A DNA stretch of 63,402 nt, filler included, from Rhabdomonas costata (lineage: Eukaryota): assembly GCA_019059605.1 (NCBI GenBank). It is 35 parts of 35 records of this genome, joined end to end, with 100 filler letters (N's around TTAATTAATTAA, not from the genome) between each part and the next. Parts side by side here need not be neighbours in the genome. Positions count along the whole stretch, not along the records: positions 58,064 to 59,776 come from JAHMHO010010203.1; 34 more parts are not named here. One strand, written 5' to 3'. The position numbers were made by a program, and so were the translations under genes. A model generated the notes under the pieces. It was not told where the DNA came from. It saw only the letters and a list, made by a program, of their open reading frames with translations, and did not search any database. Positions 5,182 through 61,582 of this stretch are shown here, piece after piece (position 1 is the first letter of the stretch; every line of letters starts with the position of its first letter).

Positions 5182-5509
5182 CTGAGCCACAGCAGACAGA
5201 AACAAATGAACCTCTCTGAAAGTTCAGCAATCTCAAGCAGAAAGCAATAAGACCACAGCAGCAGCATGCGTGAAGAAGGAAAAGTAGAAAAGGTTAATCC
5301 ACAGATTCCACAACCCGGAAACCGGTGGTGCTCTTTAGGTCTGCANNNNNNNNNNNNNNNNNNNNNNNNNNNNNNNNNNNNNNNNNNNNTTAATTAATTA
5401 ANNNNNNNNNNNNNNNNNNNNNNNNNNNNNNNNNNNNNNNNNNNNTTTGTGGGTGTTGAGGATGACGCAGTTTCGGTAGAGGTGGCTCGAGGGGCAGGGC
5501 GCGGCGGTG

Positions 5510-5662
5510 TACTACACCATGGACAGCACCGAGCCCTGCCCCACGAGCCACCTCTACCGCAACTGCGTCATCCTCAACACCTACGGAGCAAACTCCCTGA
5601 AGGCGATTGCGGTGAAGCAGAACATGGAGGACTCCGAGATCCAGAGCGCTGTGTATATGATT
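5510..5662 (+). CDS. Exon encoding a chitobiase/beta-hexosaminidase C-terminal (CHB_HEX_C/Fn3-associated) domain
   Basis: YYTMDSTEPCPTSHLYRNCVILNTYGANSLKAIAVKQNMEDSEIQSAVYMI fits the YYTxDGSxP...LY...LKAIA...S...Y pattern; donor att|gtagg. Confidence 0.65.
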
Positions 5663-8099: not shown

Positions 8100-8528
8100 C
8101 TATGCAGGATCCTCAGGCAGCACGTCTGGGTCGGTGTTGGTCTCTGCACAAGGACGGAGATGGGGACATGACATTGGAAGGACCAGGAGCAGAACTCTCA
8201 GGACTCATTGGGAGACAGGAGAGGGTGCCTCAATCAGAGAAGAGCACACCGCGATAAGACTGGAGACGCGTATACCTCGGGAAATGTTCTCCGCATGATG
8301 TTTTGGCGAACAATCGCACGACCACATCCACAGGTAAAACAAACAAGGAACAATGGAATATCATTCCCTGTCAAAGCAGAGGCCGTCCCCCCTGACTCGG
8401 TACAGATAAGCTAACGCCAGCCCAGAGGCTGGTCTGACTGCAGTCTATGGTGACATTTCGCCCCGGATGCGTTCATCCACCCAGGAAAAGGTCGATAGAA
8501 AAGACCTTCTCAGGCTTCCAGAAGGCGC

Positions 8529-8649
8529 AGCTTTACACACAAGGTATGGAAAAAAAGAAACCCATCTGGAAGTTGCGCTTCAGTCCTGCAGCTTTACACA
8601 CAAGGTATGGAAAAAAAGAAAACCCATCTGGAAGTTGCGCTTCAGTCCT
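8529..8649 (+). repeat. Tandem duplication, 2 x about 61 bp
   Basis: cagctttacacacaaggtatggaaaaaaagaaa(a)cccatctggaagttgcgcttcagtcct occurs twice head to tail. Confidence 0.9.
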
Positions 8650-9287
8650 TCAGTTTTTCGAGTTTGAGCACAAGGCAATTTCCAGTTTCCAGCAGCATTT
8701 CCAAATATGGCCCGGGTCACCTCAAAAGTAAAGAGGACATTGCACATATGGGGGAACGCTTTTCTCCAAAAGTTGCCAAAAGGTATAAAAAAGAACACAG
8801 CGTTCAAGTTTGTTACAAAAACACCTTGCACCAAAAGGCAGGGGAAAACCGAAGGCCAGAAAGGCACAAGGCCACACAAGCGGAGACAGAGGCATGGGGG
8901 GTTAACCTCGATTTTCTCCAGGAAGGCCATCTTCTCTAGGTCCAACGTAGCGATGGCCTCGGAGAGCTCTACNNNNNNNNNNNNNNNNNNNNNNNNNNNN
9001 NNNNNNNNNNNNNNNNTTAATTAATTAANNNNNNNNNNNNNNNNNNNNNNNNNNNNNNNNNNNNNNNNNNNNTGTGTGTGGGCACCGAGTATGATTCTGC
9101 TGGGGGATCACAGATTCGGGTGATTTCTTTCTTGTTGTTGGTAATGTTGCAATGATTTGTGGTTGGTCTCCTCGTGTCGGTCATACTGTGAGCGCAAAAA
9201 CTAGCGCCGACAAAGGGTGCGCTCCATCAGCTGCAGCTGCCCCAGAACGCACCCCTCCTTTCCATCCCTTTCATCATGTGTGCGTGA

Positions 9288-9507: not shown

Positions 9508-12500
9508 GTGTGTGGGAACACTGTGTGAGGAAAAACTTCAGCTTAACGATCCCCTTTTTCCCGAACTTCGCCTCCGCCTGTGTGGGAAGTGTGAGAGACC
9601 TGTTTCCTTTTATATGGAAACTGCTGAAGGTTTGTGTTCAAGGGATTCCCTTCAATTATTGCCTTTTTTAATCCAAATAACTTCTTGTAGCAGGGCTAAT
9701 GCCACTCAGACGCGACTCGGCTTGTGAGGTAGGTATGGGAACAATATAGTTGAGGGGTTTATCCCCTGCTTATACAGTATTTCATGTCCGCCCATTTGGT
9801 TTAATTGTTTTTTCCTTTGCTTTTCCCTAAGTTGTGGGTGCCCCCGTCAAACCCACCGGCTGCAGCGGGCCAGAAGCGGCGCAAGATTGTACAATATAAT
9901 GTAAAAATACAATATAATCCAAAAATGGAAGGACTGGCCTGGGGTGCAAGTGCGCGCAGCCGCTTCCTGTGCTTCAGCCGGAGCCCCAGTGGTGTTTCTC
10001 TTCTTCTCAACAATATATGGCATTGATAGTGTAGTAGATATCCGTGTTCGTGCTTTGGGGACTTAGATCGACTGTACATTCTCTGCGACTGGGAGGAGCA
10101 GCTTGCTGTTCAGGTCCTCGGCTTCCCCCTCTCACCTTTCTGGCTTCTTTCCTTTATTTTCTGGATTGCGTTGGAATTTTCTTTAATGCTCAAAGGATTA
10201 TGGCCGCTGCCTCTTTTATTACTATTTTCAACTCTGCATCTGTGCAAAGGAAAAAGCACAGCCCTCTCTTCGCTTGTGGTGGTTTTTGGTGCTGTTGGGG
10301 ATTGCTGCTTCTTTTCGGGGTTTTCGTCCGCTTTTGTATGGGAAACGTGGGACTGTGTTTATGGGGAGGGGTGTTCCTATAGGTCTTTACTGCAGACTGT
10401 CATGTGTTACATACTGTTCCCCTGAGCCGCCCCGTGGTGGGCATGGCGGTGACCCCCGCCGGAGTCCTGGTCGTTTGCCTACCCTCAGCCATGCAGTTCT
10501 ATTACCAAGGCAAGCCTCTTTCAGGTGCCCCGCCTCCCTTCTCCCGATTCCCGTGCAGATTTCCCTCGTGACCACTACCTTTCTCTTTGGAGGAACACTG
10601 CTCTTGAGTACCTCTTGGATCCGCTAGGATCTGTCAGCCTGAAAAATTGAGCAATGTCAAATGATATGGCCCGTTTCATCTCAAAAGTGAGAGTTTCCCA
10701 CACAAACATCAAACTGTCAGAACTCCGAGGAAAGATGCACACCAAAATGAATAGTTTCCTTCAGTTGCCTTAAAGCGACCACCGTCAGNNNNNNNNNNNN
10801 NNNNNNNNNNNNNNNNNNNNNNNNNNNNNNNNTTAATTAATTAANNNNNNNNNNNNNNNNNNNNNNNNNNNNNNNNNNNNNNNNNNNNTTTGTGGTTTCA
10901 TCTCGAGACCTCTAACATCTATATTCATGAGACATCTGGTAATGAATAGCCTGTGTCTGCACTGGTGGTAATGCTGTTCTCATGTGCCACCCTGCAGGTC
11001 TTTATTGATATTCAGCCGCAACTTTTTGGTTTCATCGTCCTGTATTTTGTTTGCCGTGTTTTTAACTTCTGAAAAGATGATGACAGGTGAGACAGGTGGA
11101 GACAGTTGCGGGAGACAGAAGGAGACAGTCGGAGCAAGCGGTCTAACCCCCATTGTTGCTGTTTTGTAACACGACATGAACTCGTTGTTTTGTGTTTTTT
11201 CCACAGAAAAAGCAACGGCCCGTGGACAATGTCAAAGAAGTTGACTACTTTTCGTTGATGAAAGACCTAGAGAAGCAGAGCAAGGATGTCCGGGATGAAC
11301 TGAAGAAAGGAGCTGCACCGTGACATTTATGTGCCCTTGTTCCACATTTCGCGCCGAATGTAACAAGCCCAGACTTGTTGCATGTGACTTTGTGCCGCCT
11401 TTGGACGCCGCTTCCCCAAGACTGAGGACTGCTGCTGTTGGCCTGCTTTCCACTTTTGAAACTAGGAAATATCAAGGTACTGTCAAAAGCACTCGAGGAT
11501 CATGGGGCTTCGTTTTCCATGCTTTCGAACAATCAAATGGAAAGATAGAAAGTAAAGAAACAAAGGAACGAACCAGCATTTTTCTTGTATGACGCCTGAT
11601 AAAGTGTGTAGGTACGCGCCAGAGAGACCTAACAACGGCATGGGCGGTGTTCCTGCTATGTGAGGCTCAGTCAGCTGTGTTGTTGTTGAGAAATGCAAAC
11701 ATCGCAGAAGGGAAGACGGTTGGCAATTTCCGATTAACTTAGTAGCACTGCATGGGCTGAATTTTTCTTCATTCTTTTTTCTTTGCTTGCTTTTGCTGAA
11801 TTTGTACAGCTTCTCTGTTTTTCTCTCCGTTGTATTTCTGGTTTGTCATGCTCGCTGCACAAGTTCAGAAGCTTCCCCGCTTCCCACACTGTGCGGGTAT
11901 ACCTTTTCTCCCCTGGTTCATTTTCATTTTCATGTGTGAAGGTTTTCAGCGTGATGCAATCCGCAATCGCAACCCTGAGCCGACTTCCCCCTGTGGCGAA
12001 AGTGCTGTTTCGCACAGTAATGGGAACCGTCTCCCGAAGCCCTTTCGGGTTGCGGCCTGCGGTGCTCTTCACCCCGTACCGTTTTGCGCGTGGAATCATC
12101 TCGGAAAGGACCAACGCCGGGCTTTGTTTCGCACGTGTATACATGAGCAGGTTGAAATTGCTTTCCAATGTGGAATTTTCGCTGTTTTTCTCTGGTTGGG
12201 ATTGGGGAAGGCTTACCTGCTTAGTTTTTGCTTGGGTTACGGTTGTTTTGCGGGGTACCCAGACTCTCCTTCCCAACCTCTTCCTTGTGCACCAAATGTT
12301 CCTCTTCTCTCCATTTTCACTTTAGTGTGACCCATATATTTGAGCGAACGTCCGACTTCGGTGGACTGTTTCGACCTTGGCTCGTGGTGTACGTAGACAA
12401 AATCTTATTACCGTACCACCACCCCCTTTTCTGTTTCTTCTTGGCTCATTATGCAACGGAAAGTGACCTTTTATGTTTGCAGGTTCATCAACAATTTTAT

Positions 12501-13384
12501 GACGATCCCGAACCACAAAAGGTCACTTTCCGTTGCATAATGAGCCAAGAAGAAACAGAAAAGGGGGTGGAGGTACGGTAATAAGATTTTGTCTACCCAC
12601 ANNNNNNNNNNNNNNNNNNNNNNNNNNNNNNNNNNNNNNNNNNNNTTAATTAATTAANNNNNNNNNNNNNNNNNNNNNNNNNNNNNNNNNNNNNNNNNNN
12701 NGGGGGGTGTTGGGGTGATAGGTGACCACTTATTGCTGACCTAGTTAGAAAGGGGGTTTCATGGTTAGCAGCGGAGATCTTGATTTGCCGTAATAACCAT
12801 GGGTAGCCCCCCCCCCAACCGAGGCCTAGGGGATCTTCCCTGAGACGAGTTGGACAGGTGAGGTGATGAATTGGTCCCTTGGCCTGGGATTGCGATGCCC
12901 TATGGGGAGAAGTAGCGAAGAGGGGGAAGTTCAGAGCGAGATGCACGGATTGATTGTGTGAACACCAGTGAGAAATTATTCTCTGGTTTCACATTAACCT
13001 TAACTGTCGTCCCGATGACGCATTCACCCGTTTCGGTGCAACAGTGCCAGGTGCAGACTTGAATTTCGACTTTTTAATTGACCTCAAACCTTCGGCTTTG
13101 GCGTGAACGCTTTGATTGGTAAATGTCCGTGGGGATATTGTCATTTAATGCCTTGCACATTCCTAAATTCTTTTTCTTTTCCTTCTCACCTTCCATCTCT
13201 GCGGAATTGGCTCCTTGCCACCCTAAAATTGGTAGGCTCCTATGTTGTTTTTGCGAGTGGACTAGGACATGGTCGCAACCTTTGGTACGGGTCTTTGGCC
13301 GCGAGCTGGCATCACTGTCAGTGTGCACTGCTGACACACCCCAAATCGCAATGCTCTGGGGAGAGAGGGGGAGGGCGGTGTTAG

Positions 13385-18045: not shown

Positions 18046-18148
18046 NNNNNNNNNNNNNNNNNNNNNNNNNNNNNNNNNNNNNNNNNNNNTTAATTAATTA
18101 ANNNNNNNNNNNNNNNNNNNNNNNNNNNNNNNNNNNNNNNNNNNNGGG

Positions 18149-19269
18149 GTGTTGGGTCATATACTCCATCGCGGCAAGATATACATATTTGGGGGTTCCG
18201 GTCCCGATGGTCCGGAGGGTAACGGTTATCTCTCCAGCGGTGAAGTATATGACCCCCGCACCAACGCGTTTTCCTTGCTTCCGGCGAGGATGTGCAGCAG
18301 GCGCGAAGGCGTGGTTGCTGCCAGCTATGAGGACAATATTTACATCTTCGGAGGAATGGAGGGTATTCGTTGCCTTTCCGTTTGCGAAGTCTTCGATCCC
18401 ATCGCCAACACCTTCACTGTACTTCCCACGGCGATGCGCATCCCGCGCTATTATGCCTGTGCCGTAACGCACGGAGAGCGCATCTTCCTGATTGGTGGGT
18501 TCGACGGCCGGAGGGCGGTTTCCAGCTGCGAATTCTTTACCCCCAGCCTCTTCGCGGGCGCAGCGACTTACACATTCACGATGCTCCGTGCATCACTGCG
18601 CATTAGTCGCTGGGCTGCCTGTGCCGCGGTCCACGGAGGGCGCATCTTCGTGTTCGGGGGGTCCGCGACGGCCGAGACGGCTCTCTCGAACTGTGAAGTC
18701 TTTCGGCCAACGCCAGATGCACCAACACTCCCTGACGTGGAGCCTTTCGGAGAAAGATTGGAAAGGGAGCAATCAATTGCGGTCAGCCTCTTCGATCCCC
18801 AAGCCCCTTATTTCTGGAACCAGGCCCGCTTTCCCTCCTCAGCCCGACCTAGCTTCTTAGTGCAGTCGACTGACTGCCCTGCAGATGTGAAGAGGCTGGT
18901 GGAAGAGCTGATGACGACCCGTGGCCGGTATCGGAGCGGCCTGATGGAAAGACCCGTGGCGGGGTACCAAGTGCATCGTATCGAAATCGTCGACCGCAGC
19001 CCGCTTACCCTTCAAGCTCTTCAGGTCCGCCTGCAGATGCTGGAGAACCTTCGGTCGACGAGGGTTCAGGAAGTTCGGAACGCCGAGGATGCGGTGAACG
19101 AGGATGCAGAGAAGCTTCGGGTGTTGGGTGCGCTGAAGGGGGTTTTTGTGACGCGCCACCGCCCGACAAACGCCGTGCTGACCTTCCACGGCACTGGGAT
19201 AGACTGCGTGGAGCACATTCTGAACGCTGGGCTGCAGAAGTACTGTCGGGAGGACCAGGGCTACTTTGG
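18149..19269 (+). CDS. Kelch-repeat protein fused to a PARP-like ADP-ribosyltransferase domain (partial)
   Basis: Four Kelch repeats (IYIFGG, IYIFGG, IFLIGG, IFVFGG, each followed by S.EVxxP-like segments), then YQVHRIEIV...NAVLTFHGTGIDCVEHILNAGL....DQGYFG ending at a donor gg|gtatgg. Confidence 0.8.
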
Positions 19270-20303
19270 GTATGGTGCGAGGAAGAAAGAGAGACAGAGT
19301 GAGAGCTGTTTTCCAGCGCGCCGCGCCCTCCCTCCCCGCCCCGGTTCAACCTGGCTTGCTTTTCTCTCTTTTTTGTTGGCCATACCTTATTATTGCAGTG
19401 GAGTTCAGGTAAGAGGAAGTGCCTGTTCTGCAATTTTCCGTTTCACTTGACGGTCGAATCTCACCAGAAACCCTGTGAGCACTGCCCCCTTCGGCTGTGA
19501 ACTCCTTGTTTCACATTGAGGCACGAAACGTGTTTCCAGCTTTCATCTCACCAGACCTGTCGTGAGAGTGTCTTTTGTACCGAAGATTGCTGTAGCGCTC
19601 ACATTTAGTTCAGAGGAGCGCCACTCCGCGCAGGTGTTTCGCACGCCTGCGCTGCATCCTAAGGGTCTTTTGTGGGCTGCCCTTTGGACTTGTGCATGCC
19701 GATTGTAGATTTGAAGTGAGAAAGAATCGGTTGCTGACTCAGCCTTCCGCACCAGTATGGCAGTGGCGATAGCGTTGTTGGTTGTGGTACGTAGCATTAC
19801 GGGCTATGCATTTTTTCTCACTTCAAATCTACAATCGGCATGCACAAGTCCAAAACCACNNNNNNNNNNNNNNNNNNNNNNNNNNNNNNNNNNNNNNNNN
19901 NNNTTAATTAATTAANNNNNNNNNNNNNNNNNNNNNNNNNNNNNNNNNNNNNNNNNNNNGTTTTTGAGCACACACATACACAGCAGCAGTGCGCTGTGGT
20001 CCTTCCTCACAGGGCACCAAACCCAACATTGAAACGATTCCTGCAGATACCAGGGGGGATGGGGAAGAACGCAAAAAGGCATGCGCGGACTCTGCATTGG
20101 AATGCAAAAAGTCATTGAAACCAGAAACCGAACCTTGCCAAAACCAACCCTGACCAGAGAAGTGGACAGGACAGCGTGTGTCCAAGTGTAAGGGTGTGTT
20201 TGTGTGTTGAGACACTGAGCTGGGATCTGCTCGTTTGCTCGTTCTGCGGTGTACTCCGTGACTCTACCTGTGACTCTGCAACTGTGACTCTACCCCTCAT
20301 CAG

Positions 20304-23593: not shown

Positions 23594-25277
23594 CACCCTC
23601 CTCGCGCATCCCTCCGTACAGATAGAGGTGGGTGGTTTCCAGCACGGCCAGCAGGGCGTTGATTCGCCCACACGGCTGCAGGGGCCTGTCAAGTGCCTTG
23701 CCGCTGCCCAACCCCTGAAAGGGGTGCGTCAAGATTTGAAAGAGGATCGTGTGTGCTGTTCGCGGCTCCCCACGAGCAGGAGCACGCGACCGGATAACGT
23801 AAAACGTTCTCAGACGCCTGCCTTTTCTCTTTCATTTCAGAAGACAAGACACAAAAGCCGACTGGTTCCTTTGGGGATGGAGAGCGGATGCATATTACGT
23901 ACACCGGAGTATTGTCAGCGTCCTGTGACGATTTCTGGAAAACAGATCTTGTCCCGTGTCTATGTGGAGCTGTGTGCAGCTACTCTTGGAACCCCAATGC
24001 AACATTCCCCTCACCCGATGTCAAAGGGTGGGCATCGCAAAATGCACAACACGACCTCATCCTCATCTTCCTCAGCTGTGTGGCGGAGGGCAAAGAAGCG
24101 CCTCAGTTCCATGTTGAAGACATAGAGGTCGGCAAAGAACGTGCTACGAAGGTCCGCCTCCTGGTCCTCGAAGTCCCACACTCCGCCAAAAAGGTATATC
24201 TAGAGGATACAGCACCGGAAACTTGCGAAACTTGCGCTGCTAGCGCTGCTACTTCATCAAAAGAGACGCCCCGATGCCCCGATGTCTTCAAACTCAATTC
24301 TCCCATCACCGCCATCACTTCGCAAACTTCAGCATTACGGAGTGCAATCATTTTTTGCTGCCCTGAGAAAAAGAAAATATGTCTATCAAGAAAATCACTG
24401 TCAACGAAAAATGTGGCCCACTTCACCTCAAAAGCAAGAGGTGACAGTAGAAGGTCAAAATCAGCTTAAAAAAACAAGCACAACCGATATGCACTGGAAC
24501 CCAGTTTTTTCACCACCCGTTTTAGCTTCGAAGTCCAAAAACACCTGATTTAGTGCACACTTTTGTAAGTTGTGCCTTTTTGAGGTGACGCGAACAACAT
24601 TATTGACTGGCGCAGATAACAGTGCCACAGTGGCCAGACCTTCTTGTTATGCGTACACGCGGAGATCCCCGAGCGCACCGAAGGCGCGATGCCCTGCACA
24701 CGGAGCTTCCTCCACTGCATCGACGGCAGGTTAAAGCTCCACAGGTCAGCGAAGCACGCCCCGTGGCTCCGGGGGCCTCCACCGGCCCCTGTGGTACCGC
24801 GGCCATGGGCGACGGTCTCCAAGGAGACAGGCACACCACCACAGTACCCGCCGTACATGAAGACGTCGTCTTGGAAGGCCCCCAGGACGCACCCAGAGCG
24901 TGGTGCAGGAACGTCGTCGCTGGGAGCGTATGACTGTACGGTGCAGGAGGTGCAGAGTGAGGGAAAAAGACGCAGACCTCGTGCAGAATGGCAAAACCAA
25001 AGTGATGGGATGACATCAGCGATTACCGCGTACGACAAGGAGATTGTGTCCAGGGGCCGATATGGAACTGAAACGGGCGAATTCAAAGAGAGCAGAGAAA
25101 TGGAACCCGTGTCACGCACCGCGGCCGTCCACTCGGCCTCGCCATCGACGTCTTTCAGTACCCAAAGATCGTTGAAGTAAAGCACCTCTGCCTCGACGGA
25201 GGCCCCGTGAAAGCCCCCAAAGATTACCAGGTTCCTCCGGCAGAAAGCCATCCGATGCCCACTGCGTGCAGTGGGAC
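23594..25277 (-). CDS. KLHDC4: Kelch domain-containing protein 4, 4 exons
   Basis: PTARSGHRMAFCRRNLVIFGGFH...YFNDLW; PAPRSGC...MYGGY...DLW...APSVRSG; IYLFGGVWDFED...STFFADLYVFNMELRRFF; PCGRINALLAV...LYLYGGMREEG. GT-AG introns. Confidence 0.85.
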
Positions 25278-25507
25278 CTGAGACACAAGGTTCATTCCCC
25301 GCAGATANNNNNNNNNNNNNNNNNNNNNNNNNNNNNNNNNNNNNNNNNNNNTTAATTAATTAANNNNNNNNNNNNNNNNNNNNNNNNNNNNNNNNNNNNN
25401 NNNNNNNTGTGTTTATTCTGTGATTTTGTTTTGCAGGCTGCTTTCGTTTTGTTCTCTTTGTTTGCGTGCACAAGTCCCCTCTTGTGCGCTTAAGCAGAGT
25501 TCGAGCT

Positions 25508-29141: not shown

Positions 29142-29657
29142 CGTGATACGTGGTAGCAGAGGTGGAATAATTTGACCCTGTGCGTGGAGCGCAGCTCGAA
29201 ATTGTGGTACCACGTATCACTTCGTGAGACGTGGTAGCAGATGAAGAGTTCAGGACGCCCTGTGGAGATGAATAAGTTGAGAAAGCTTTGTGAGGCACCA
29301 GGAACGGAGCTCTGTGCTGGAGGACAACGTATCACGTCGTGAGACGTGGTAGCAGAACATTGTTTTGAGAAGTTCCTGTGCGGACCAGTGCAGCTTTGAG
29401 GAGTACCACGTATCAGTTCGTGACAAGTGGTATCAGAGTTTTATTAGCCAGTGCGGAAGAGCACAGCTCTGAGTTGTGGTCCCACGCGTCAGTGTGTGAC
29501 ACGTGGAAGCATAGCATAAGCAGAGAGATTTATGGGGTGCAAAGAGTCCAGCGCGGAGAAGAGAGCTCGCAGTTGGTAGAGGAACCGCGTGCAACTTCGT
29601 AACACGTGGTGTCAGAGCAAAGCAAAAGGTTGAGGACTTTATGCGTGGTGTCAGAGG
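29142..29657 (+). repeat. Degenerate tandem array of 36-nt palindromic units, each ending in a tRNA primer-binding-site-like motif
   Basis: Units at 29142 (partial), 29206, 29321, 29402, 29478, 29581 and 29644 (partial); consensus GGTACCACGTATCACTTCGTGA(G/C)ACGTGGTA(G/T)CAGA. Confidence 0.9.
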
Positions 29658-30753: not shown

Positions 30754-30857
30754 NNNNNNNNNNNNNNNNNNNNNNNNNNNNNNNNNNNNNNNNNNNNTTA
30801 ATTAATTAANNNNNNNNNNNNNNNNNNNNNNNNNNNNNNNNNNNNNNNNNNNNGGTG

Positions 30858-31026
30858 GGTTGTAGCATAGTCTGTTGCGTAGGTTTGGCTGTAGGTGTAG
30901 TTGGTGCTTCTGTTGTTGGTCGTAGTGTAGTGTAGCTAAGGGTATGGGTATGGGTTGTAGCGTAGTCTGTAGCGTAGGTTTGGCTGTAGGTGTAGTTGGT
31001 GCTTCTGTTGTTGGTCGTAACGTAGG
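30858..31026 (+). repeat. Direct repeat of about 68 bp (period about 96 bp), G/T-rich
   Basis: ggttgtagc(a/g)tagtctgt(t/a)gcgtaggtttggctgtaggtgtagttggtgcttctgttgttggtcgta occurs twice. Confidence 0.85.
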
Positions 31027-31376
31027 GTGTAGCGGTGTGTCAGTGTCAGCGTCAGGGTTGGGGAAGGATTAGAGCTCCTGTTTTGCTTAGATTCCGAACG
31101 CAGGTCTCGCAGGGATGTCCAGGAGGGGGAATGGCAATGTCATTAATACCACTATCCCACTGTTTCCCTTGTTGGGTGCAATTCAAACAAGTGCAAAACG
31201 TGGCGTCCATAAAGCACAGAAAGCATTATGGTTTTCCTTGGGAGAGAACAAAAAGAAAGCTGCGCTGGTTCTTTCATTGGGCTGATGAGCTTGGTTTCGG
31301 GCTGCACGCGTGAACCCCTGTGCCACGGGTGTGTGGGTTTTCTTTGTCTGTGGGGAGACGGCCCCTTCCCACACAG

Positions 31377-32258: not shown

Positions 32259-32716
32259 GTCTCTGTGCTTTTTGTGTGCGAGTACTGGGTGATTCCTATT
32301 GTTATCCAAAGGCTCCTGCTCGGGACATTGGCGACATTGGGCTGCTCGCTGTTGGCGATTGACCGGAATAGCTTGCGTTGCGTGCACGCGCTTGTGGTTA
32401 GGAAGCCAGCATGGCTTCATTGGGATGTAACTGACAAGCTGAACGCCTTAAACAGGGAGGATTTATAGTTCAGGGAACCCAAGGTCCAAAGACCAGAAAT
32501 GGGGGCGAGGGGAAGAAGAGGCCTGCATCCTGGAAAAGGCGTTCAGCTTGTCAGTTACACCCCAACNNNNNNNNNNNNNNNNNNNNNNNNNNNNNNNNNN
32601 NNNNNNNNNNTTAATTAATTAANNNNNNNNNNNNNNNNNNNNNNNNNNNNNNNNNNNNNNNNNNNNGGGGGGGGGTGAAAAAATCAGCGCCCCACTCTCT
32701 CTTTGTATGCTTAAAG

Positions 32717-35564: not shown

Positions 35565-36344
35565 GCTGTCCTTGCGTGAAGCCTTTGGACTGCCCAGACT
35601 CTTTTGGCTATGTTCACTGCTTTGTACCTCTTTTGCAGATGACGCGACCTCTGACGGCATTGCCGATCAAGAGGAATATGACAATTAACAGTACTGTCCC
35701 TGTCCTAATATGCTTCTAGCTTTCAGAAAACCTTTGAAGCAGGAGTCACAGGCGCTCAAATCAACAGCATCTGTACAAGATAAGACGCATTGCTACGTCC
35801 CGGAATGATCCCGACAAAAACAACCCCTGGGCATACTCCAGTTAAACCAGAGCAGAGGCGGCCGCTCACCACCACGAAGGCAGGGTATGCGCTGACCTTC
35901 AAACCGTTCACACGGGAGGAAACTTCGGCCCCGAGGGATTTGCTCTGGGAAAAATGCAATAAATTCTCAGAACATGTGCTGCCTATCATGTGGGACATTG
36001 CAAGTGCACATCGCGAGCCTTACCGCCAATCCCTCTCCACTAACAAATTGCGTAAATACAACCACATGAAGCAAGGAAGAGCATGCCTCTGCGGGGACAT
36101 TGAAGTAATTGAAAGTCGGTCTGCGTGGGCAACGGCGCAGGTGTACGATTGTCTCTTGTTTTTTGTCTGAGGTGTAGTGAGTAATATCTTCACTNNNNNN
36201 NNNNNNNNNNNNNNNNNNNNNNNNNNNNNNNNNNNNNNTTAATTAATTAANNNNNNNNNNNNNNNNNNNNNNNNNNNNNNNNNNNNNNNNNNNNTTTGTA
36301 TAGATTCATGAACGACCAGTGCTTGATAGTGAACTACTTCCCTT

Positions 36345-36713
36345 TTCTCAATCTTGCGCTCTATATCAAACAGAACGGAAAGTTGACGTTGCAGGTCAGG
36401 CCCGAAGTACTGCAAATCAGAGGCCTGCGAGGCACCCCTCCCACACACAAGAGCAGCAACTGAAAAAGTTGAAATCAAGATTGAAAAAAGGGAAGTAGTT
36501 CACTATCAAGCACTGGTCGTTCATGAATCTATACATACTGAAGCAAAATAGCAGACGACATCTGTGCGCGTCAGTTAGGTGTTGGTTAACATAATCGCAG
36601 ACCTGAAACTGCGAGAGGTAGGGGGGGATGTGAGCCTGGATTGTCAGGTCCTCCAGCAGGTCATCCACAACCGCGAGAATGCGCCGGCTCTCAAGGATGG
36701 TCTGCTGATTCAT
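36345..36713 (-). CDS. Dynein regulatory complex protein 10 (IQCD)-like N-terminus, 2 exons
   Basis: MNQQTILESRRILAVVDDLLEDLTIQAHIPPYLSQFQ|ASDLQYFGPDLQRQLSVLFDIERKIE; IEx.RI..V.DE pattern recalled for the DRC10 N-terminus; GT-AG intron. Confidence 0.5.
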
Positions 36714-44959: not shown

Positions 44960-47900
44960 CTGTTTGGAGAAGCAAGCACAAGTTCAATCGATTTGAGCCA
45001 GAGATCAACGATCGTGGTCCTCCTATAAAGTGATGAGAAGTGAAAAGCTTATCCAATTCACATGGGATTATTAAAGGCCGAGGGTTCCCTCTACTCCACG
45101 CATGCCTGACCAAAACCACAGTCGACTGTATGGGAGAGGCTACTGGATTGTGGACACATCAGAAAGGTTCGGGATTACTGAAAACTCATCACCTCATCAC
45201 CCCCTATGGTGGCGATGAGGTGATGAGTTTTCAGTAATCCCGAACCTTTCTGATGTGTCCACACCCCCNNNNNNNNNNNNNNNNNNNNNNNNNNNNNNNN
45301 NNNNNNNNNNNNTTAATTAATTAANNNNNNNNNNNNNNNNNNNNNNNNNNNNNNNNNNNNNNNNNNNNGGTGGGGTGTGTTGGGTGTGCTTGCGTGTCTG
45401 TTCCAATCCGTTTCTATTGCTGTGCTTCTGGTTGAAAAAGAAGGTTGCAAAAAGAGCATTTAGGCAGTGAGGTCACTCGATTCACCAATTCAGCCAGAAC
45501 TGATTCGCGCAGAATTCAAATCCTTCCATCAATCGATTTTGCAGTGCTCTGTTGCTGTTTTCGAGCGATGTTCTCCTCTATGCATTATCGAGGGCTGTGT
45601 TCCGCATGGTTACCTCTCTTCTGTTCTATAACATAACCCCAACCGTAACCCAAGTCCTAACCCTCTCTGTTCTGTATTTATGCTGAGGCGCGGACGCGGA
45701 TTCAGAAATATGCTCATGTGCTGTGGCTATGGGGGTTGACGCCCTCAGGGCTGCGGTTTCCGAGCGGGAGGCTCAACCGCGCCGCTGTTGTGGGGAGGTA
45801 CCACGCCGAGCTTCGTGCCCTGGTCTCCAGGGCCGCCCTGCTGCGGCGATAATGGCTTTTCGGCCCCTTCTCAATGCACACTCCTTGCACCTCCGCTAAA
45901 TATCATCTCATCCCCAACACACGAGACCCTTCTTTTCTATCTTTATATGTCGAGATCTGTTTGTGGGTTGCTTCGCTCTGATGGCGTGTTCGCTCGTGTT
46001 GTGTTTATATCGCTAATGTATTTCTTTGGGCTGTTTGAGAATTGATGTGTATTTCCCTCTCGCTCCCTTAGTTTACCTTTAATCGACCCTATCCACCATC
46101 AAAGCTTCCACCAGTGGTTTTCTTTTTTGCACCCGCCTGTAGCAAAACTGCATTTCCAATTTTGTATTCTGTGAAGGCCTTTTCGGGAAATTTTGAGTAA
46201 CATTTCTTTCAGAATACAATGATGGGGATTAAGTATTTGTGCATCGGTTTTCCCACAGCATTTGTTCACCCTTCCATTATTGACAATATAAGCTGTCGAC
46301 TTCGGAACCCCGAGCACCTGGATTGTGTGGATTGTGATTGGAGGTGGGGTGCTATTTTATTCGAAGGTCCAGCCCAGTCCAATTTTGTGCGTGGGATTTT
46401 CTTCTCTTTCTAGCCCGTGGGAGAGCTTTGCCTCTTTGGGGCTGCTGTACCAGGGCCCAGGTGCTTAGAGCTGAAAGCTGTGCGACCTTTTTTCTTCGCG
46501 GATGGGTGGAATATTGAGGCGGTTTCTTGTTTTGAAATGTACGTATGTTTTATCAATGCACTTTGTCTGCTAATATCAGTGGGGCCCAGCGCAGTTTTGC
46601 GCGGGGCACTGTTGTCATCGCGGGATTTAAAAACAAGCGCCTCTCACAGCTTCGACACGCGTGCACTCGCTAACGATTGTGTGCAGATTCCAAACGCGAA
46701 GGACAATGGATGGGAGGCCCAAGTCATCAGCTCCACAGCCAGCGCTCAGCGCCCAGAACATACATTCCATGCATGGTCATACGTGATCAATCGAAAACAC
46801 GTGTTTTCATGGGGACAGCTGTGTTAGCTTGTTTGCGTATGTGTATGTTTGTGATGAACAAACCGATAGGGAACAAAGGCGCACACATACCCTTGCACAG
46901 ACACGCCAAGAGGAGCGACGATGAAAAGAAAAACTACCCCAAACCGAAAACGCGCGCCGCGTAGGTGCTCGCACGGAAATTGCTATAGCACTGTTGTCAG
47001 ACGTGGGGTGCCGGCTCATCAGACAACAGACCAGGACCCTCAGACTGACCAACGTGTCCCAGGCTTATGTACACACACCCCCNNNNNNNNNNNNNNNNNN
47101 NNNNNNNNNNNNNNNNNNNNNNNNNNTTAATTAATTAANNNNNNNNNNNNNNNNNNNNNNNNNNNNNNNNNNNNNNNNNNNNATGGGCACAATGTTTGAA
47201 TCGTATTTCAGAATGAAGTGGATTTTTCATGTGGAGCTTTGCGGCAGATTATCCATGGATGGAAGAATGAGGATTTCAAATTAAACCTAACCATTCTCAC
47301 GGGACCCAGTTATTTCGCCGATATTTCGACACATACCACATTGGCCGAAGAGGACGAGATGGAGCCCGCGTCTTGCAGCTGTCCCAGGGCCAAAGGCTGC
47401 GCTGAAGACGCGGCAGTGCCAAATTTAAGCGCTCGCTTGGCCTACGACACCCACGCACAGGTGCACAATGAGAGGACTGCAAGGTCTGCGAGGACTGAAT
47501 CTGATCGTTGAGGTGCGACGGCCAAAGAGGACGAAGCGTGACTGGAGGACCCACCTTCAGACAAAACATTTGAAGGTCGTTCAGCTGGAGAATACTAGAC
47601 GAACAGGGATGGGAGACGTTGCCTGGTGACAGAAAAGCATGTAAATCATACTTCTCTCTCTCTCTTCTTGGATGAGCTGAGAAGTCGTGAACCGCAGGAA
47701 TGACGCAGTTACGTTGTGTGGCACTCTGGCAACGGTAACAAAAGCTGGCAGGTCGTGCTCGAGTTTTCGAAAGTGGTTTTCCCAAGATTCAAGTCAAAGG
47801 TTGGCAAGTGGGTGGGTGGGTCAATTTCTCTTCCAAGAGGGGACGACCCCCTTATCCACCTTCTCGCTCATCCCCTCTGGAACCCTTGCTTACACCATCA

Positions 47901-49429
47901 CACTGGCGAGTTGCAACTTTGCACTGCTTTGGACGTGGTAAAACCAGGTCCACGTGAAACCAAGTTTTTGCAGATACGTCCGGTGCGTGGTGTGTGTTAA
48001 ACCGCGGGGCAAGAAGCGGCGCAAAGGATACGAAAGAGAGTCCACAAGCAGCCGAGGGTGAAAGGTCAGGAAAACCTGAACCCAAGGACCGGCCACGCAG
48101 CGGTATGCAGTTGTATGTCCAAAAACCATAGCCTGCTTCGGCTTAGCCCTCTCTTGTGGTCCCATCCGTCTCGATTCCTTTTGCTTTTTTTATATACAAA
48201 TTTTCTCCAAATACAAAAAGCCGGCCCTGGAGGGGTGGAAGATGGGCAAGGGCTGCGCAGCGGAGAGGCAACCATTGCGCTGGCAAAGCTGCTTCGGCCG
48301 GCGGAGGCGGCCTCCTCAGGCTCCTCCTCTAAGGGCGGGGCAAGCGCCGCGGAGGCCGAAGCGGGGTGTCCACCCACACTGCCCCCGGAGGAGGACTGCT
48401 GCTTCTGCTGCCGGATCACGGCTTTCTGGTACGCCTCGCTGTTCTGGATGCGCTGTTTCTCTGTCTGTACGGAGGCCTGTGCGAGGGCACCGAAAAGGGC
48501 TATGCAAAGGATCACCCTCAAAAGATTTCGTGACAGAGCACACTTGTGGGGGAGGGGCATGTGTGGCAGCGATGCTCATGTGATGTGGGGAGTTTTCCGA
48601 GGAATTTGTGCTTGTTCTTGGTCAGCCGGTTCACCCGCCCATTCCTGCTTTCATCGGTGCACTGATTCCGTTGTTGCACCGTGATGACCCATGCTGCTGC
48701 AGTGCTTAGGCTTAGGCCAGTGCTTAGGCCAGCACGCAGGCCTGCAAAGGGCCAAAAAGTGCACCCGGGGGCCCTTGAAAATTTTCGAGTCGAAAATGCC
48801 CTTAAACGGTCTGGTCCGGGAGTGAATATGGCGGATGTCACACAGCGAATAGAGCGAGGTTTTGGGCCGAAGTAAGTGTCCTACCACACCCCCCCCNNNN
48901 NNNNNNNNNNNNNNNNNNNNNNNNNNNNNNNNNNNNNNNNTTAATTAATTAANNNNNNNNNNNNNNNNNNNNNNNNNNNNNNNNNNNNNNNNNNNNTTTT
49001 TTTGTGAATCGAAAGATGAGATTGTGACCAGTCCAAAACACTGGTGAGCAGCAGACTTCATACCCCGGAAGAGCAAGGGATTCTACACCTCGTTGGTTGG
49101 ATGCTGCGTGAACTTAACCTGGTGCAATTGAAGTTTCTTATCGGCAATGTGGTGATGCACATCTTGCCTCGAAATCAACAATTCAGCAATTTCGTCAAAG
49201 AAAGTATGTTTGCTACAATTGTTGCAAACTCGAATCTGCTTACCAGTGCTTTGGACTGGTCACAATCTCATCTTTCGATTCAGCCAAAAAAGTCAACACC
49301 ACATGTCTTTGGCGTAAATTGACGACGTATTGTATCTCGGGAGCACGATACTCCTGTACAAGGTGCAAACACCCAAACACCCGACTAAACCCCAGACATC
49401 CACGCCGATCCAAGAATCGTGGCAGGCAC

Positions 49430-57253: not shown

Positions 57254-58408
57254 GTCCCTATGATTCGCAGGGTGCCGGGGACAGGACAAGCGTATTGAAA
57301 ATAGCACCACGGCAGCTAATCACCATTTTATAGGCAGAAAGAATGCCTTCGGACCTGACGAGAGAAATCGACGCGGAGTAGCACTGGGCAAGTGCAGAGA
57401 AGGATTGGGTCTCAAGGATCTCAAGCTGCTGTTTCGTGAGGTTGTTCTTGAGTACGTCCTCTCGACAGAAGTGGGTGTCAGCAGCGGCAAAAGCAACTTT
57501 CTTGTGTTCGTTGCCTTTTGTGACACCTATCTTGCCGAGTTCATTTTCAAGATAAGGATGGTATGCTACATATCTGTGTGCTTGGTTATGCACGTGAGCG
57601 TGTGCCTCTTCGCTGGCCTCAGCAGCAGACATAAACCCGCGCAAATCAATGCCGAGTAGTGGAAACTGACCGACACCGGCCCACAAAAACCTTCCTGGTT
57701 TTGGTTTGGATACCGGTGGGCCTGCAATATCCTTTGATTAGTTCGCTTCCCTGCCTTTCGCTGCGACCCCTGTAGCTGTGGCCCTGTGTTGTACAGGATG
57801 GGTCGAAGGGAGAAGTTTTCAACACAGGAGTACCCTCACAGGAAGTTTGTGTTGCTCGACTTTTCAGGACATTAGGACTCTGCGGTCGTATCTGGAGGAC
57901 GGCAAGCTGAACGTCCTGTGAGGGTACTCCTGTGTTGAAAACTTCTCCCTTCGACCCAACACANNNNNNNNNNNNNNNNNNNNNNNNNNNNNNNNNNNNN
58001 NNNNNNNTTAATTAATTAANNNNNNNNNNNNNNNNNNNNNNNNNNNNNNNNNNNNNNNNNNNNTGTGTTTTTTCTGAGTTTGTCTTGCCGCTCTCAAAGG
58101 ATGTCCCGCTTTTGGCTTTGGAATGCAAGCGGTCTGCGAGTTTCAGCTGCAGCTCACCTGCACCCTCCGATAGACTTCCAGGCAGACGTTTGATATGGAC
58201 GGAGGGGGTTAGTTGGGTGGAGAGGATGTGTAGGAGTCTAATGCTGTCGTCGCTGAGGCTCCTGCTTCTTTAGGTATCGGTCCGTCGGTTCTACTGCACC
58301 ATCGAACCTCTGTTCGGTATTGTGCTGTTCGGAATGGGTTTGTGGGACGTCGGCCTTATCCTCACTTTTTCTTCTAGAAAAGACGATTTCGTTCCCTTTT
58401 ACCCGCAG

Positions 58409-59498
58409 GTTGTGCTCCACGGCAGGATGGTTGGATCGCGAAGTGCGATGGAGATGTTTTCCGGGGACCGAGCAGATCTGTTTGCTGAGGTTTTTGTTTT
58501 GTTTGGTTGCCCTGCGCCGTGCTCGCCATCCCTAACCCACCTTCCCTAACCACCCGTAACCTGCCTTTGCTGACCGTTGGAAGGCACGGAAGGCGGCTCT
58601 TATGCTGAATACACACCATCACAGTGATGCAGATCCGATCCCCCTGCAGCCACGCCTCCGCTGGCTAACGGTCCGACCGTCCTCCAGGAGGCTCCCGCCC
58701 TTCCCTCTGCTCGCAGGTTTGTGGAGCGTTCGACCGGCTTCAGGCGAGGTATTCCCCAATCGTTCTGGAGGGTGCTGGAAGCATCAGCGAGCTGAATTTA
58801 AGGGACCGTGACATCACCAACCTCAGGATGGCTCTGCATGCTCAGGTGGGATTGCCTTGGGATTTCCCTTCTTCGTTTCGCTGCTCCGTTGAGTCCTTCT
58901 GTAAAGGCTGTTCAGCCTGAGAAGCTGTGACCTCTGCCTGCCTTTTGTCGCAGGCCGTGGTGTATCTCGTCGCGGATATTGACAAGGGCGGGGTCTTTGG
59001 CAGCGTCTACGGGACGATTCAGCTGTTGCGCCCCGAGGAGAGGGCACTGATTCGCGGGGTGAGTTGGGGAATTTTAGGGGCTGGGGCTGCTGCATTTTCT
59101 TTTCTACAGTGCGAAGATAACGCGTGGCCCGACAACGAGTCAGTGTTTGTTTAAGGTGGCCCGGTGTTCCCTTCATTTTATACCAGTATCTTCATTTTTA
59201 GAGCCCATCCTAATGGCAAAGGCAGCGTCCCCGCCACCAGAATATAGGTTCTCGTCCCCCTGTCCGCTGTTCCCTGCGGGTGCTCGCCCGCCAGGATGCA
59301 GATCAACACTTGTTCTCCTCTCACTATAAAGAAGTTCTTAAACCGTCACTGCACGGGACCCTTGGCATTGCTTATCGAGGGGTTGGGGGTAGGTCATTGT
59401 GAACAAGTTTCGCGGAGACATCCGCTTGTTCTTGGATGGCCAGAGGATGCTCTCGGAGCTGGTGGGCCTCCCCGTGTACGTCGTGCCCTACTTCCGAG
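58409..59498 (+). CDS. cobQ: Cobyric acid synthase (CobQ/CbiP), 4 spliceosomal exons
   Basis: Exons 58409-58489, 58717-58845, 58954-59058 and 59393-59498 splice in phase 0 to VVLHGRMVG...[94 protein letters not shown]...[12 protein letters not shown]. Every intron is GT-AG. Confidence 0.93.
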
Positions 59499-59884
59499 GT
59501 TCTCACCCCACTCCGCTTCTCTGAGGTAGGGCATGGCCAGCATCCAGCCCTTCTCTCTCGCATGTCTCCGTAGATCGCATACGGCGTGCCTTTGACAACT
59601 TAACTCAGGGCTTTGGTATTGCCATTTTTCTGTTTGGGCACGCCCTTGTTTCAAGATCAACTCCAGGGAGGTTATCGGTGGATTGTGGAATATATGGCTC
59701 TCCCTGGTTGGACTCATTCACCCACCCCATTCACAACATGTGCTTTTTCTGACTAAGAAAAAGTTTCTGCAAAAACNNNNNNNNNNNNNNNNNNNNNNNN
59801 NNNNNNNNNNNNNNNNNNNNTTAATTAATTAANNNNNNNNNNNNNNNNNNNNNNNNNNNNNNNNNNNNNNNNNNNNTGTGGGTG

Positions 59885-61582
59885 GTCACGCACAACAGCC
59901 ACGACGGATGACCACAGTTGTCCTTAAGGTACTGCTCAGGGGTAACGGACAAGCTTTCGCACCGCCCACACCGCCCTCCTTGGGTTCCTGCTGCGTGCGG
60001 TGAGGAAAGTGGAATGTGAGTGCAGAAGGCGAGGGAGGAGGACCTGTTCTCCAGGAAAAAGTTCGCGAGGGCATTCTTGGGGTTGATGCGGTACGCCAGC
60101 TGGATCGAAGCTGCTGCGTGGCCGGGACCAGCAGAGGATGAACCCCCGAAAGGATATGGGGCACCTCTCTGCGAGAGGTACTCGCCACCCTGAGAGAAGT
60201 GCGTTTGTTGTGAAGAGGTTGCGTCAGCTGAGGAGGAATCAGTGGATCTGGGCATCGGACGAGGGTGCACAACTCATTGGACGAACGATTGGCTGTCGAA
60301 AGCTCTTCCCATATCCCCATGCGGTTGCGGTGCAGTGCGGAAGACCCCACCCCTCTCCAGCAACTTGAAGTGGGTTAAAATAGGCATCAGGTAATGGAGG
60401 CGGGATTCACCACTTGAATGACGACCCTCCACCCCGGGAAACAGCGCCTGACCACGTAGATGCCTTGATAACAAGAGTTCTGCCCAGCAGAAGCTGCATC
60501 GGCTTCCCTCATACACACACAAACGGACATAGGCAACGTTCTGAATGCAGAAAAAGCACCCCCAACGGCGTTTAAATGGCACTCTGCGTGTGGTGGAACA
60601 CTGCTCCGTGGTTTGCGCGGTGAAGCATCGGCGTGTGTGTGTGTGCGGTGTGAAGGGGGAGGGGGGAGTGCTGCCTGGTCTTCCAGACCCATCAACTCGA
60701 GGGCGACGCGGCACATGTTAGCCTCCTTGGTTTGGCTCTCGCGGAACAGCGGCACGTCTCCCGCCCGCACGATCAGCACAAAGCGGCCGTGGCGGGCCCG
60801 CGCGCGGCCCCGGCTCTGGATCACACTGGTCGGGCTGCAGGTGGTGTCGTACCTAAAAGGGGGAGAGAGTTTGCGCAGGGTTTTCGTTCGCCTGTGGGTG
60901 TATAATACGAAATTTTGAGTAACCCGGGATCTATTCTCCAGGGTCATTGATGTTAACATTGCGGGCTTTTGGAGACGCTCGCCGCGGAAGTGACAGCTTG
61001 ATGGTTGCGCACCATCCTTCACAATTGAGTTTCCTTCCAGACATGACAAGAGGCAGAAAGGCAGCCACAAAACCAAACGTTCCAGAATGAGGCGGCCAGG
61101 ACCACACGCTGGCACCTCTGGTCGTGCACATCTTTCTCTCCTCACTTTTGTTCTTCTGTGGCCCAACAAACAGAAGTGCCGTTTGCCTTCAATACCACCC
61201 GCAACTCTTTTTTTCTTTTTTCTTTTTCTCTGGATAACCTCACCCCAGGTTTCAGAACCTGGGTTGTGAGCGAATTCACGTCGACCCTCGCGGATCGGGA
61301 AGTGCACATTGGCGTGGTGGTTGACATGCATGGACGTACCCACCCACCCACATACCCACGTACCGTACACACAACGTAATCTGATTAGACTCGCTTTCAA
61401 CGGCGAACAATTCATTAAATGTGCCCTGCGCGCCCCACCAAAGTCATTGCTCTGATGTGGCTGCAGCGGCACCACATCTCACCTTATGGCACTTCCCCCC
61501 GTGGGCGTGGGCGTAGGTGGTATCCACTGAAAGACATACCGCACGACCAGATTGCACAGGGAAATGTCCAGGCCTTCCTCCA
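59885..61582 (-). CDS. RIG-I/Dicer-type SF2 RNA helicase C-lobe followed by a possible dsRBD
   Basis: VEEGLDISLCNLVVR|YDTTCSPTSVIQSRGRAR (motifs V/VI; exons 61582-61540 and 60852-60675); exon 60189-60044 ends INPKNALANFFLEN. Confidence 0.8.

Follow-up and report, generated by a model that had tools for sequence, protein, structure and literature searches.

A contig of 1713 bases (Table 1) carries, as judged from its sequence, a fragment of a predicted cobyric acid synthase (CobQ/CbiP) gene of the Bacteroidota type that is interrupted by introns and belongs to a eukaryote. Its four exons, once joined, encode a product of 140 residues, which aligns over its whole length (residues 1–140) with residues about 92–234 of CobQ proteins, at up to 71% identity. 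The alignment contains two single-residue indels, located inside exons 1 and 4, and no gap at any of the three junctions. About 29% of the gene is present on the contig, that is, 142 of the about 495 positions of a CobQ profile that we built from 30 Bacteroidota proteins. The window, i.e., the whole stretch of 63,402 bases analysed here, consists of 35 such contigs of 1712–1720 bases each, joined by 34 identical artificial linkers made of 44 N, TTAATTAATTAA and a further 44 N. As the contigs are unlinked, the sequence adjoining across a linker is uninformative on linkage, and any reading of neighbouring genes beyond the CobQ contig is invalid. Within this contig, Pfam searches of the flank and opposite-strand ORFs revealed no other recognisable gene on either strand.

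Table 1. Features of the CobQ contig and terminal inverted repeats of the window (window coordinates)
Feature	Position	Strand	Description
CobQ contig	58064–59776		1713 bases, GC 0.543; unplaced, linker-bounded; only DNA physically linked to the CobQ exons
5' flank	58064–58408	+	345 bases; without CobQ similarity or Pfam family; acceptor AG at 58407–58408
Exon 1	58409–58489	+	27 codons; CobQ profile positions about 92–118
Intron 1	58490–58716	+	227 nt; GT..AG; phase 0; 3' end pyrimidine-rich
Exon 2	58717–58845	+	43 codons; NF001989 positions 114–154, E 2.3e-12
Intron 2	58846–58953	+	108 nt; GT..AG; phase 0; in frame, contains a TGA stop
Exon 3	58954–59058	+	35 codons; NF001989 positions 157–190, E 3.5e-11
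Intron 3	59059–59392	+	334 nt; GTGAGT..TAG; phase 0
Exon 4	59393–59498	+	35 codons (59393–59497) and first base of a split codon at 59498; NKFRGD; NF001989 positions 191–225, E 3.2e-7
3' flank	59499–59776	+	278 bases; without CobQ similarity; donor GT at 59499–59500
Terminal inverted repeats	5449–5584, 12388–12601, 19683–19854, 32420–32565, 36297–36535, 45149–45263, 48997–49290, 57799–57958		

The borders of the three complete introns were examined by a junction test, in which all frame-keeping, stop-free pairs of cuts lying within 12 nt of each junction were scored (203, 208 and 124 pairs, respectively). At all three introns the chosen GT..AG pair obtained the joint best profile score, the tied pairs being those shifted along short repeats at the ends of the introns, and thus the canonical signals coincide exactly with the cuts that homology requires. 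A single alternative GT..AG pair was found among the tested cuts, at intron 1, and it scored lower (229.7 bits vs 236.1 bits). The latter value, reached by the spliced product over positions 92–233 of the Bacteroidota profile, compares with 196.5 bits summed over the four separate pieces. Removal of the GT..AG segments restores both frame and homology in the three complete introns, which is how spliceosomal introns behave, and one further acceptor and one further donor are found at the outer borders of exons 1 and 4, each of which is set by that single splice signal. All eight predicted splice signals are intact. With a frame shift in introns 1 and 3 and a stop in intron 2, the locus cannot be read through. 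The 5' flank is probably the end of an upstream intron and the 3' flank the start of a downstream phase-1 intron, which gives the fragment at least three, and probably five, introns, with at least three of them in 420 coding bases.

Two features of the intron sequences were observed alongside. Three of the four acceptors (58407–58409, 58715–58717 and 58952–58954) share the context CGCAG/G and a G precedes GT at all four donors, a context that may serve as a splice-site signature in annotation. In addition, intron 1 contains a telomere-like, CCCTAA-rich stretch near 58530–58562.

The identity of the fragment is given by several comparisons. In NCBIfam, exons 2, 3 and 4 match only NF001989 (480 positions) and then TIGR00313, in collinear and abutting segments, with scores of 46.3, 42.4 and 29.4 bits. 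The curated cut-offs of these models, 273 and 309.9 bits, apply to whole proteins and are therefore out of reach, whatever the identity of the gene, for a contig that holds so limited a part of the protein. Exon 1, of 27 amino acids, has no family match in NCBIfam when taken alone; it matches positions 90–122 of the Bacteroidota CobQ profile (E 1.3e-5), and it is recovered by tblastn at E 0.003–0.77, with five of six query CobQ proteins aligning over at least 30 residues, collinear with the other exons. Pfam assigns no family to the single exons, the pieces being short. The spliced product contains EGAGS, DIDxGG and NKFRGD, which are conserved motifs of the central part of the ATPase domain. 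Neither the P-loop nor the glutaminase domain is on the contig, according to both tblastn and profile searches; in our CobQ alignment these regions are marked by the invariant residues G13, T14, S16, D17, G19, K20 and S21 of the P-loop and by C338, H399 and H435 of the C-terminal GATase_3 domain (PF07685), which we take to be the catalytic Cys/His. Searches for further exons by tblastn with six CobQ proteins, covering the flanks of the CobQ contig and the other 34 contigs, yielded nothing beyond the four described; likewise, the profile search of the contig's own ORF pieces gave no CobQ match beyond these exons, and none to positions 1–90 in the 5' flank.

As the best matches of the fragment are all bacterial, we have considered whether it might derive from bacterial contamination or from another MinD/BioD-fold family, such as CobB/CbiA or dethiobiotin synthetase, misread as a spliced CobQ. 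With respect to the family, CobB/CbiA, BioD/dethiobiotin synthetase and MinD were tried and discarded: only CobQ models were matched at E <= 1, and the identity to annotated cobyric acid synthases reaches 71%. With respect to contamination, the coding sequence is broken by insertions of 227, 108 and 334 nt that carry frame shifts or a stop, end in GT..AG and lie at homology-exact positions. Moreover, a cobQ in bacterial DNA would extend into both flanks, and the rest of the gene is absent from them; since flanks and introns are devoid of CobQ similarity, a bacterial contaminant is excluded. The restriction to CobQ models, the gap-free alignment at the junctions, the empty flanks and the junction test together refute this reading, to which we attach next to no probability. 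The claims of the original prediction on these points are confirmed. The four GT-AG exons do join in frame into a CobQ segment, as seen in the 140-residue alignment, the 236.1-bit score and the junction test, and all the CobQ motifs it named occur in the spliced product; its argument that introns speak against bacterial contamination holds, given canonical introns at homology-exact positions and flanks without CobQ; and the model comparison it proposed between CobQ and other MinD/BioD-fold families returned, in NCBIfam, NF001989 and TIGR00313 alone at E <= 1.

A protein search with exon 2 retrieved 1029 proteins at E <= 0.001, the 120 listed of which are 76–89% identical to the exon. Where a name is given among these 120, it is that of a cobyric acid synthase from Dyadobacter, Siphonobacter, Chitinophaga or Puia, the others being unnamed metagenome proteins. 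No protein at least 90% identical to exon 2 was present among the 120 listed of the 1029, from a search of 5.8 billion clusters that included transcriptome-derived eukaryote sets, and thus no predicted or expressed product of this gene is on record there. The search with the exon 4 ORF, which is weak evidence, gave five candidates, none of which was scored. In metagenome contigs, an exact 26-base stretch of exon 1 had no matches, and the exon 1 ORF led to 262 pattern stretches, none of them a relative.

In prokaryotic genomes, one per species, we scanned for the pattern [LM]EGAGSISE, itself a Bacteroidota signature, and, from 594 confirmed stretches, retained the 80 that ranked highest against a Dyadobacter-like query. 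Among these 80 loci, 79 bear Bacteroidota titles and one is a metagenome-assembled genome titled Staphylococcus. Their identity to the spliced product ranges from 55.6 to 71.1%, compared with 38.1–48.9% for nine CobQ proteins of other phyla (Salmonella, Listeria, Roseburia, Thiodictyon, Shinella, Fusobacterium, Deinococcus, Haladaptatus and Thermus). The highest value, over 140 residues, is shared by the proteins of Dyadobacter fermentans and D. endophyticus, and a plasmid-borne CobQ of Spirosoma oryzicola (WP_232563458.1) reaches 66.9%. The window CobQ and the Bacteroidota proteins have the GSISE motif in common and are collinear, with no gaps at the junctions. Extra residues following a conserved aromatic position also mark the Bacteroidota rows, and the window CobQ keeps one of the two. 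There are also differences: the Bacteroidota cobQ genes are uninterrupted, whereas the window copy has its spliceosomal introns and a much longer branch, its GC3 is 0.72, against 0.56 in Dyadobacter, and it carries a Met at the position that is aromatic in the Bacteroidota proteins.

In the case of Salmonella enterica CbiP, a biochemically characterised enzyme annotated as cobyric acid synthase, the same domain segment is found, with EGAGS, DIDxGG and NKFRGD, and presumably the same ATP-dependent amidation chemistry. Its identity to the window CobQ is lower (45.7%), and it reads GSPAE where the window and Bacteroidota proteins read GSISE. The Salmonella gene lies in the cob operon, adjoining cobU, whereas the window copy is seen without neighbours on its 1713-base contig.

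Trees were computed from 91 rows and 142 columns, comprising 81 Bacteroidota proteins, the nine outgroup proteins and the window CobQ, so that the comparison is with prokaryotic sequences throughout. The group formed by the window CobQ and the Bacteroidota is separated from the nine outgroups with an SH-aLRT of 97 in a quick tree and with 97/97 in a more careful one. The resemblance to Bacteroidota CobQ that the original prediction pointed out is thus borne out, both by the identity ranges given above and by this grouping, which also answers the homologue tree it had called for as far as prokaryotic rows are concerned. The quick tree further placed the window CobQ beside Dyadobacter, with a support of 86. 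In the careful tree, however, it sits in an open fork with 27 Cytophagia and Chitinophagia rows, with no strongly supported subclade holding it, and in the AU test a clade of the 81 Bacteroidota rows without the window CobQ was not rejected (p 0.206). Dyadobacter as donor at the genus level is consequently not upheld. The affinity of the predicted protein is with the Bacteroidota, within or beside them.

The pattern of substitutions suggests that the exons have been under selection. The window CobQ keeps the majority residue in 39 of the 40 columns that are invariant among the 81 Bacteroidota rows, in 15 of 17 columns conserved at 90% or more, in 22 of 32 conserved at 70–90% and in 23 of 51 more variable ones; eight of its 140 residues are absent from every Bacteroidota row. 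The one invariant column that is lost holds a Met, where all 15 compared bacterial and archaeal rows have Tyr or Trp and where all nine outgroup rows are aromatic. The 140 codons contain neither stop nor frameshift. Given the conservation of the invariant columns, the exons look selected rather than decayed. At the same time, the end branch of the window CobQ measures 0.70–0.73 changes per column, compared with a median of 0.1, and at the DNA level the exons and bacterial genes share no more than about 75% identity, in short stretches. The GC content is 0.583 in the exons (GC3 0.72), 0.52–0.60 in the introns and 0.49–0.51 in the flanks. The combination of constraint, long branch, low DNA identity, exon GC and the density of introns fits a gene that has long resided in its genome under selection; fresh contamination or a decaying insert does not fit the constraint, branch and intron data.

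Some of these observations may also be read as the signature of a relic or partial copy, that is, of a once-working, intron-bearing cobQ that is now truncated or silent and of which the middle part survives. The contig shows less than a third of the gene, the protein searches yielded no matching product (for exon 2 among the 120 listed of 1029, and for the exon 4 ORF), the end branch is long and a conserved aromatic residue has been replaced by Met. We regard such a relic as unlikely, in view of the near-complete retention of the invariant columns, the 140 codons free of stops and frameshifts and the intact state of all the splice signals. Furthermore, both contig ends lie inside putative introns, and therefore assembly is the simplest explanation of the truncation.

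Among 53 ORFs of at least 150 amino acids in the window, three have a Pfam family, two of them Kelch-repeat ORFs and one a ubiquitin hydrolase fragment, and all three are eukaryote-like. The GC content of the Kelch ORFs (0.579 and 0.588) is close to that of the CobQ exons, and the GC of the CobQ flanks is at the level of the window overall. Euglenid genes have been described as intron-dense, with GT/AG introns, an example being hsp90 (2112 nt), with 10 complete and five incomplete introns, and the coding GC is reported as 58%, vs 51% in the genome (PMC8219788). The intron density and GC of the CobQ contig fit these values, without being specific. The accessible part of the supplement to that work (PMC8219788) does not contain the terms 'cobyric', 'CobQ', 'CbiP' or 'cobyrinic', and under 'Cobalamin biosynthesis' it holds only two MMAB-type adenosyltransferases.

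With regard to the ORFs themselves, the first Kelch-repeat ORF (18146–19447, plus strand, 434 codons) is open from the start of its contig, which is separate from that of CobQ, with a protein of the euglenid Rhabdomonas costata as its best relative (52% over 351 amino acids, E 1.8e-92; the next match has E 2.6e-33). The view that the host is probably a euglenid or a close relative is founded on this one marker, which is unlinked to the CobQ contig. The second (24553–25305, minus strand) lies on a contig of its own. The fragment of a ubiquitin C-terminal hydrolase (PF00443; 51568–52068, minus strand) finds its best relatives in USP17-like tandem arrays of animals and in metagenome proteins without a name, and is uninformative as a second host marker.

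Given that the CobQ contig is isolated, with no linked host gene, and that no contig of the window is linked to another, the CobQ contig could have come from some other eukaryote in the material sequenced, such as prey, a contaminant or a symbiont. The match of exon GC with that of the other coding ORFs, and of flank GC with that of the window, argues weakly against this origin, which in our judgement is quite improbable.

We have a clear preference, which we hold to be probable: the four exons belong to the interior of a nuclear CobQ/CbiP gene that is of Bacteroidota type, is broken up by introns and resides in a eukaryote, probably a euglenid or one of its relatives. The gene would derive from an old bacterial acquisition, with introns added later, under purifying selection, and with its remainder off the contig. 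According to this model, a eukaryote would have acquired cobQ from bacteria in an ancient event, spliceosomal introns would have been gained after the transfer, and purifying selection would have been maintained on the transferred gene. The regions encoding the N-terminal P-loop and the C-terminal glutamine amidotransferase domain, together with further introns, would then lie beyond the contig ends. In contrast to the identity, exon–intron structure, Bacteroidota affinity and constraint of the fragment, which are read from the DNA itself, we infer its host and the expression, completeness, activity and physiological role that the gene may have.

The N-terminal ATPase domain of CobQ/CbiP activates the b, d, e and g carboxylates of adenosylcobyrinic acid a,c-diamide, and the C-terminal amidotransferase domain frees ammonia from glutamine, which leads to the amides and to adenosylcobyric acid. 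If the gene is complete, the enzyme would be expected to work as in bacteria, with the ATP-activated carboxylates being amidated by glutamine-derived ammonia. Many protists depend on an outside supply of B12, and to our knowledge its de novo synthesis is held to be prokaryotic. In a B12-dependent host lacking the de novo pathway, the likely use of the enzyme would be the salvage of incomplete corrinoids or the re-amidation of de-amidated ones, and such a role may be suggested, by analogy, for the window CobQ. A more far-reaching version, in which a euglenid, of a lineage that uses B12 and is not known to make corrins de novo, keeps a complete, expressed, intron-rich Bacteroidota CobQ and employs it alongside other late cob genes to convert environmental corrinoids, incomplete or de-amidated, into usable cobamide, is for the moment a tentative idea, with more doubt than confidence on our side. 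If true, it would be the first case in Discoba, and the first beyond the diatoms, of such a route for corrinoid salvage or repair.

In this regard, the novelty claimed in the original prediction was overstated, as CobQ/CbiP of horizontal origin is already described for diatoms in a preprint (10.1101/2020.01.24.918219). The genes reported there as transferred in several diatoms comprise CobQ/CbiP, CobN, CobA/CobO, CobD/CbiB and CobU/CobP, with the full set of these in Fragilariopsis cylindrus and Pseudo-nitzschia multiseries, and the diatom sequences reported from Tara Oceans metatranscriptomes include transferred cobalamin genes, CobQ being one of them. CobB/CobQ also appears among the cobalamin-related gene clusters of a Southern Ocean metatranscriptome, as stated in a figure legend (10.1101/2020.07.01.177865). 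The diatom and window genes resemble each other in belonging to the same family, in their bacterial origin and, on our model of the window gene, in lying in a eukaryotic nuclear genome, and the diatom genes have been read as serving scavenging or repair (10.1101/2020.01.24.918219). They differ in the host lineage, a diatom vs probably a euglenid, the comparison being one of descriptions rather than of aligned sequences. Besides, the diatom genes are reported as complete, accompanied by CobN, CobA/O, CobD/CbiB and CobU and expressed in metatranscriptomes, whereas the window CobQ is a 140-codon fragment alone. Our literature search for CobQ, CbiP or cobyric acid in Euglena, euglenids and protists, in which subscription journals were thinly covered, found no report for the euglenid lineage. 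Thus, transferred eukaryotic CobQ is known as a kind, and it is the euglenid lineage that appears to be new.

Bacterial late-pathway genes in eukaryotes would widen the range of usable B12, as precursors, degraded forms and analogues could serve. Finding a CobQ with introns in a second lineage, unrelated to the diatoms, would show that such acquisitions recur and, if the host is a euglenid, would touch the group of the classical Euglena B12 assay organism. The present evidence for this eukaryotic CobQ is a 140-codon fragment known from DNA sequence alone.

Some further features were observed elsewhere in the window. On the contig that follows the CobQ contig, the longest open frame (60390–61478, minus strand, 363 codons) has no Pfam family and is probably non-coding. 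An Rfam search of the whole window gave no match at the gathering score and hence no B12 riboswitch, spliced-leader or other RNA marker. Hairpin-like inverted repeats are found at the end of eight of the 35 contigs (Table 1), within a few bases of the contig end, with arms of 37–91 nt that are 89–98% complementary; they look like an artefact of assembly or amplification rather than biology. Short local direct repeats occur in three regions: four 56-nt copies spaced 76–115 nt apart at 29186–29513, two 78-nt copies, 95 nt apart and 94% identical, at 30856–31028, and paired 37- and 46-nt copies, 61–62 nt apart, at 8527–8657.
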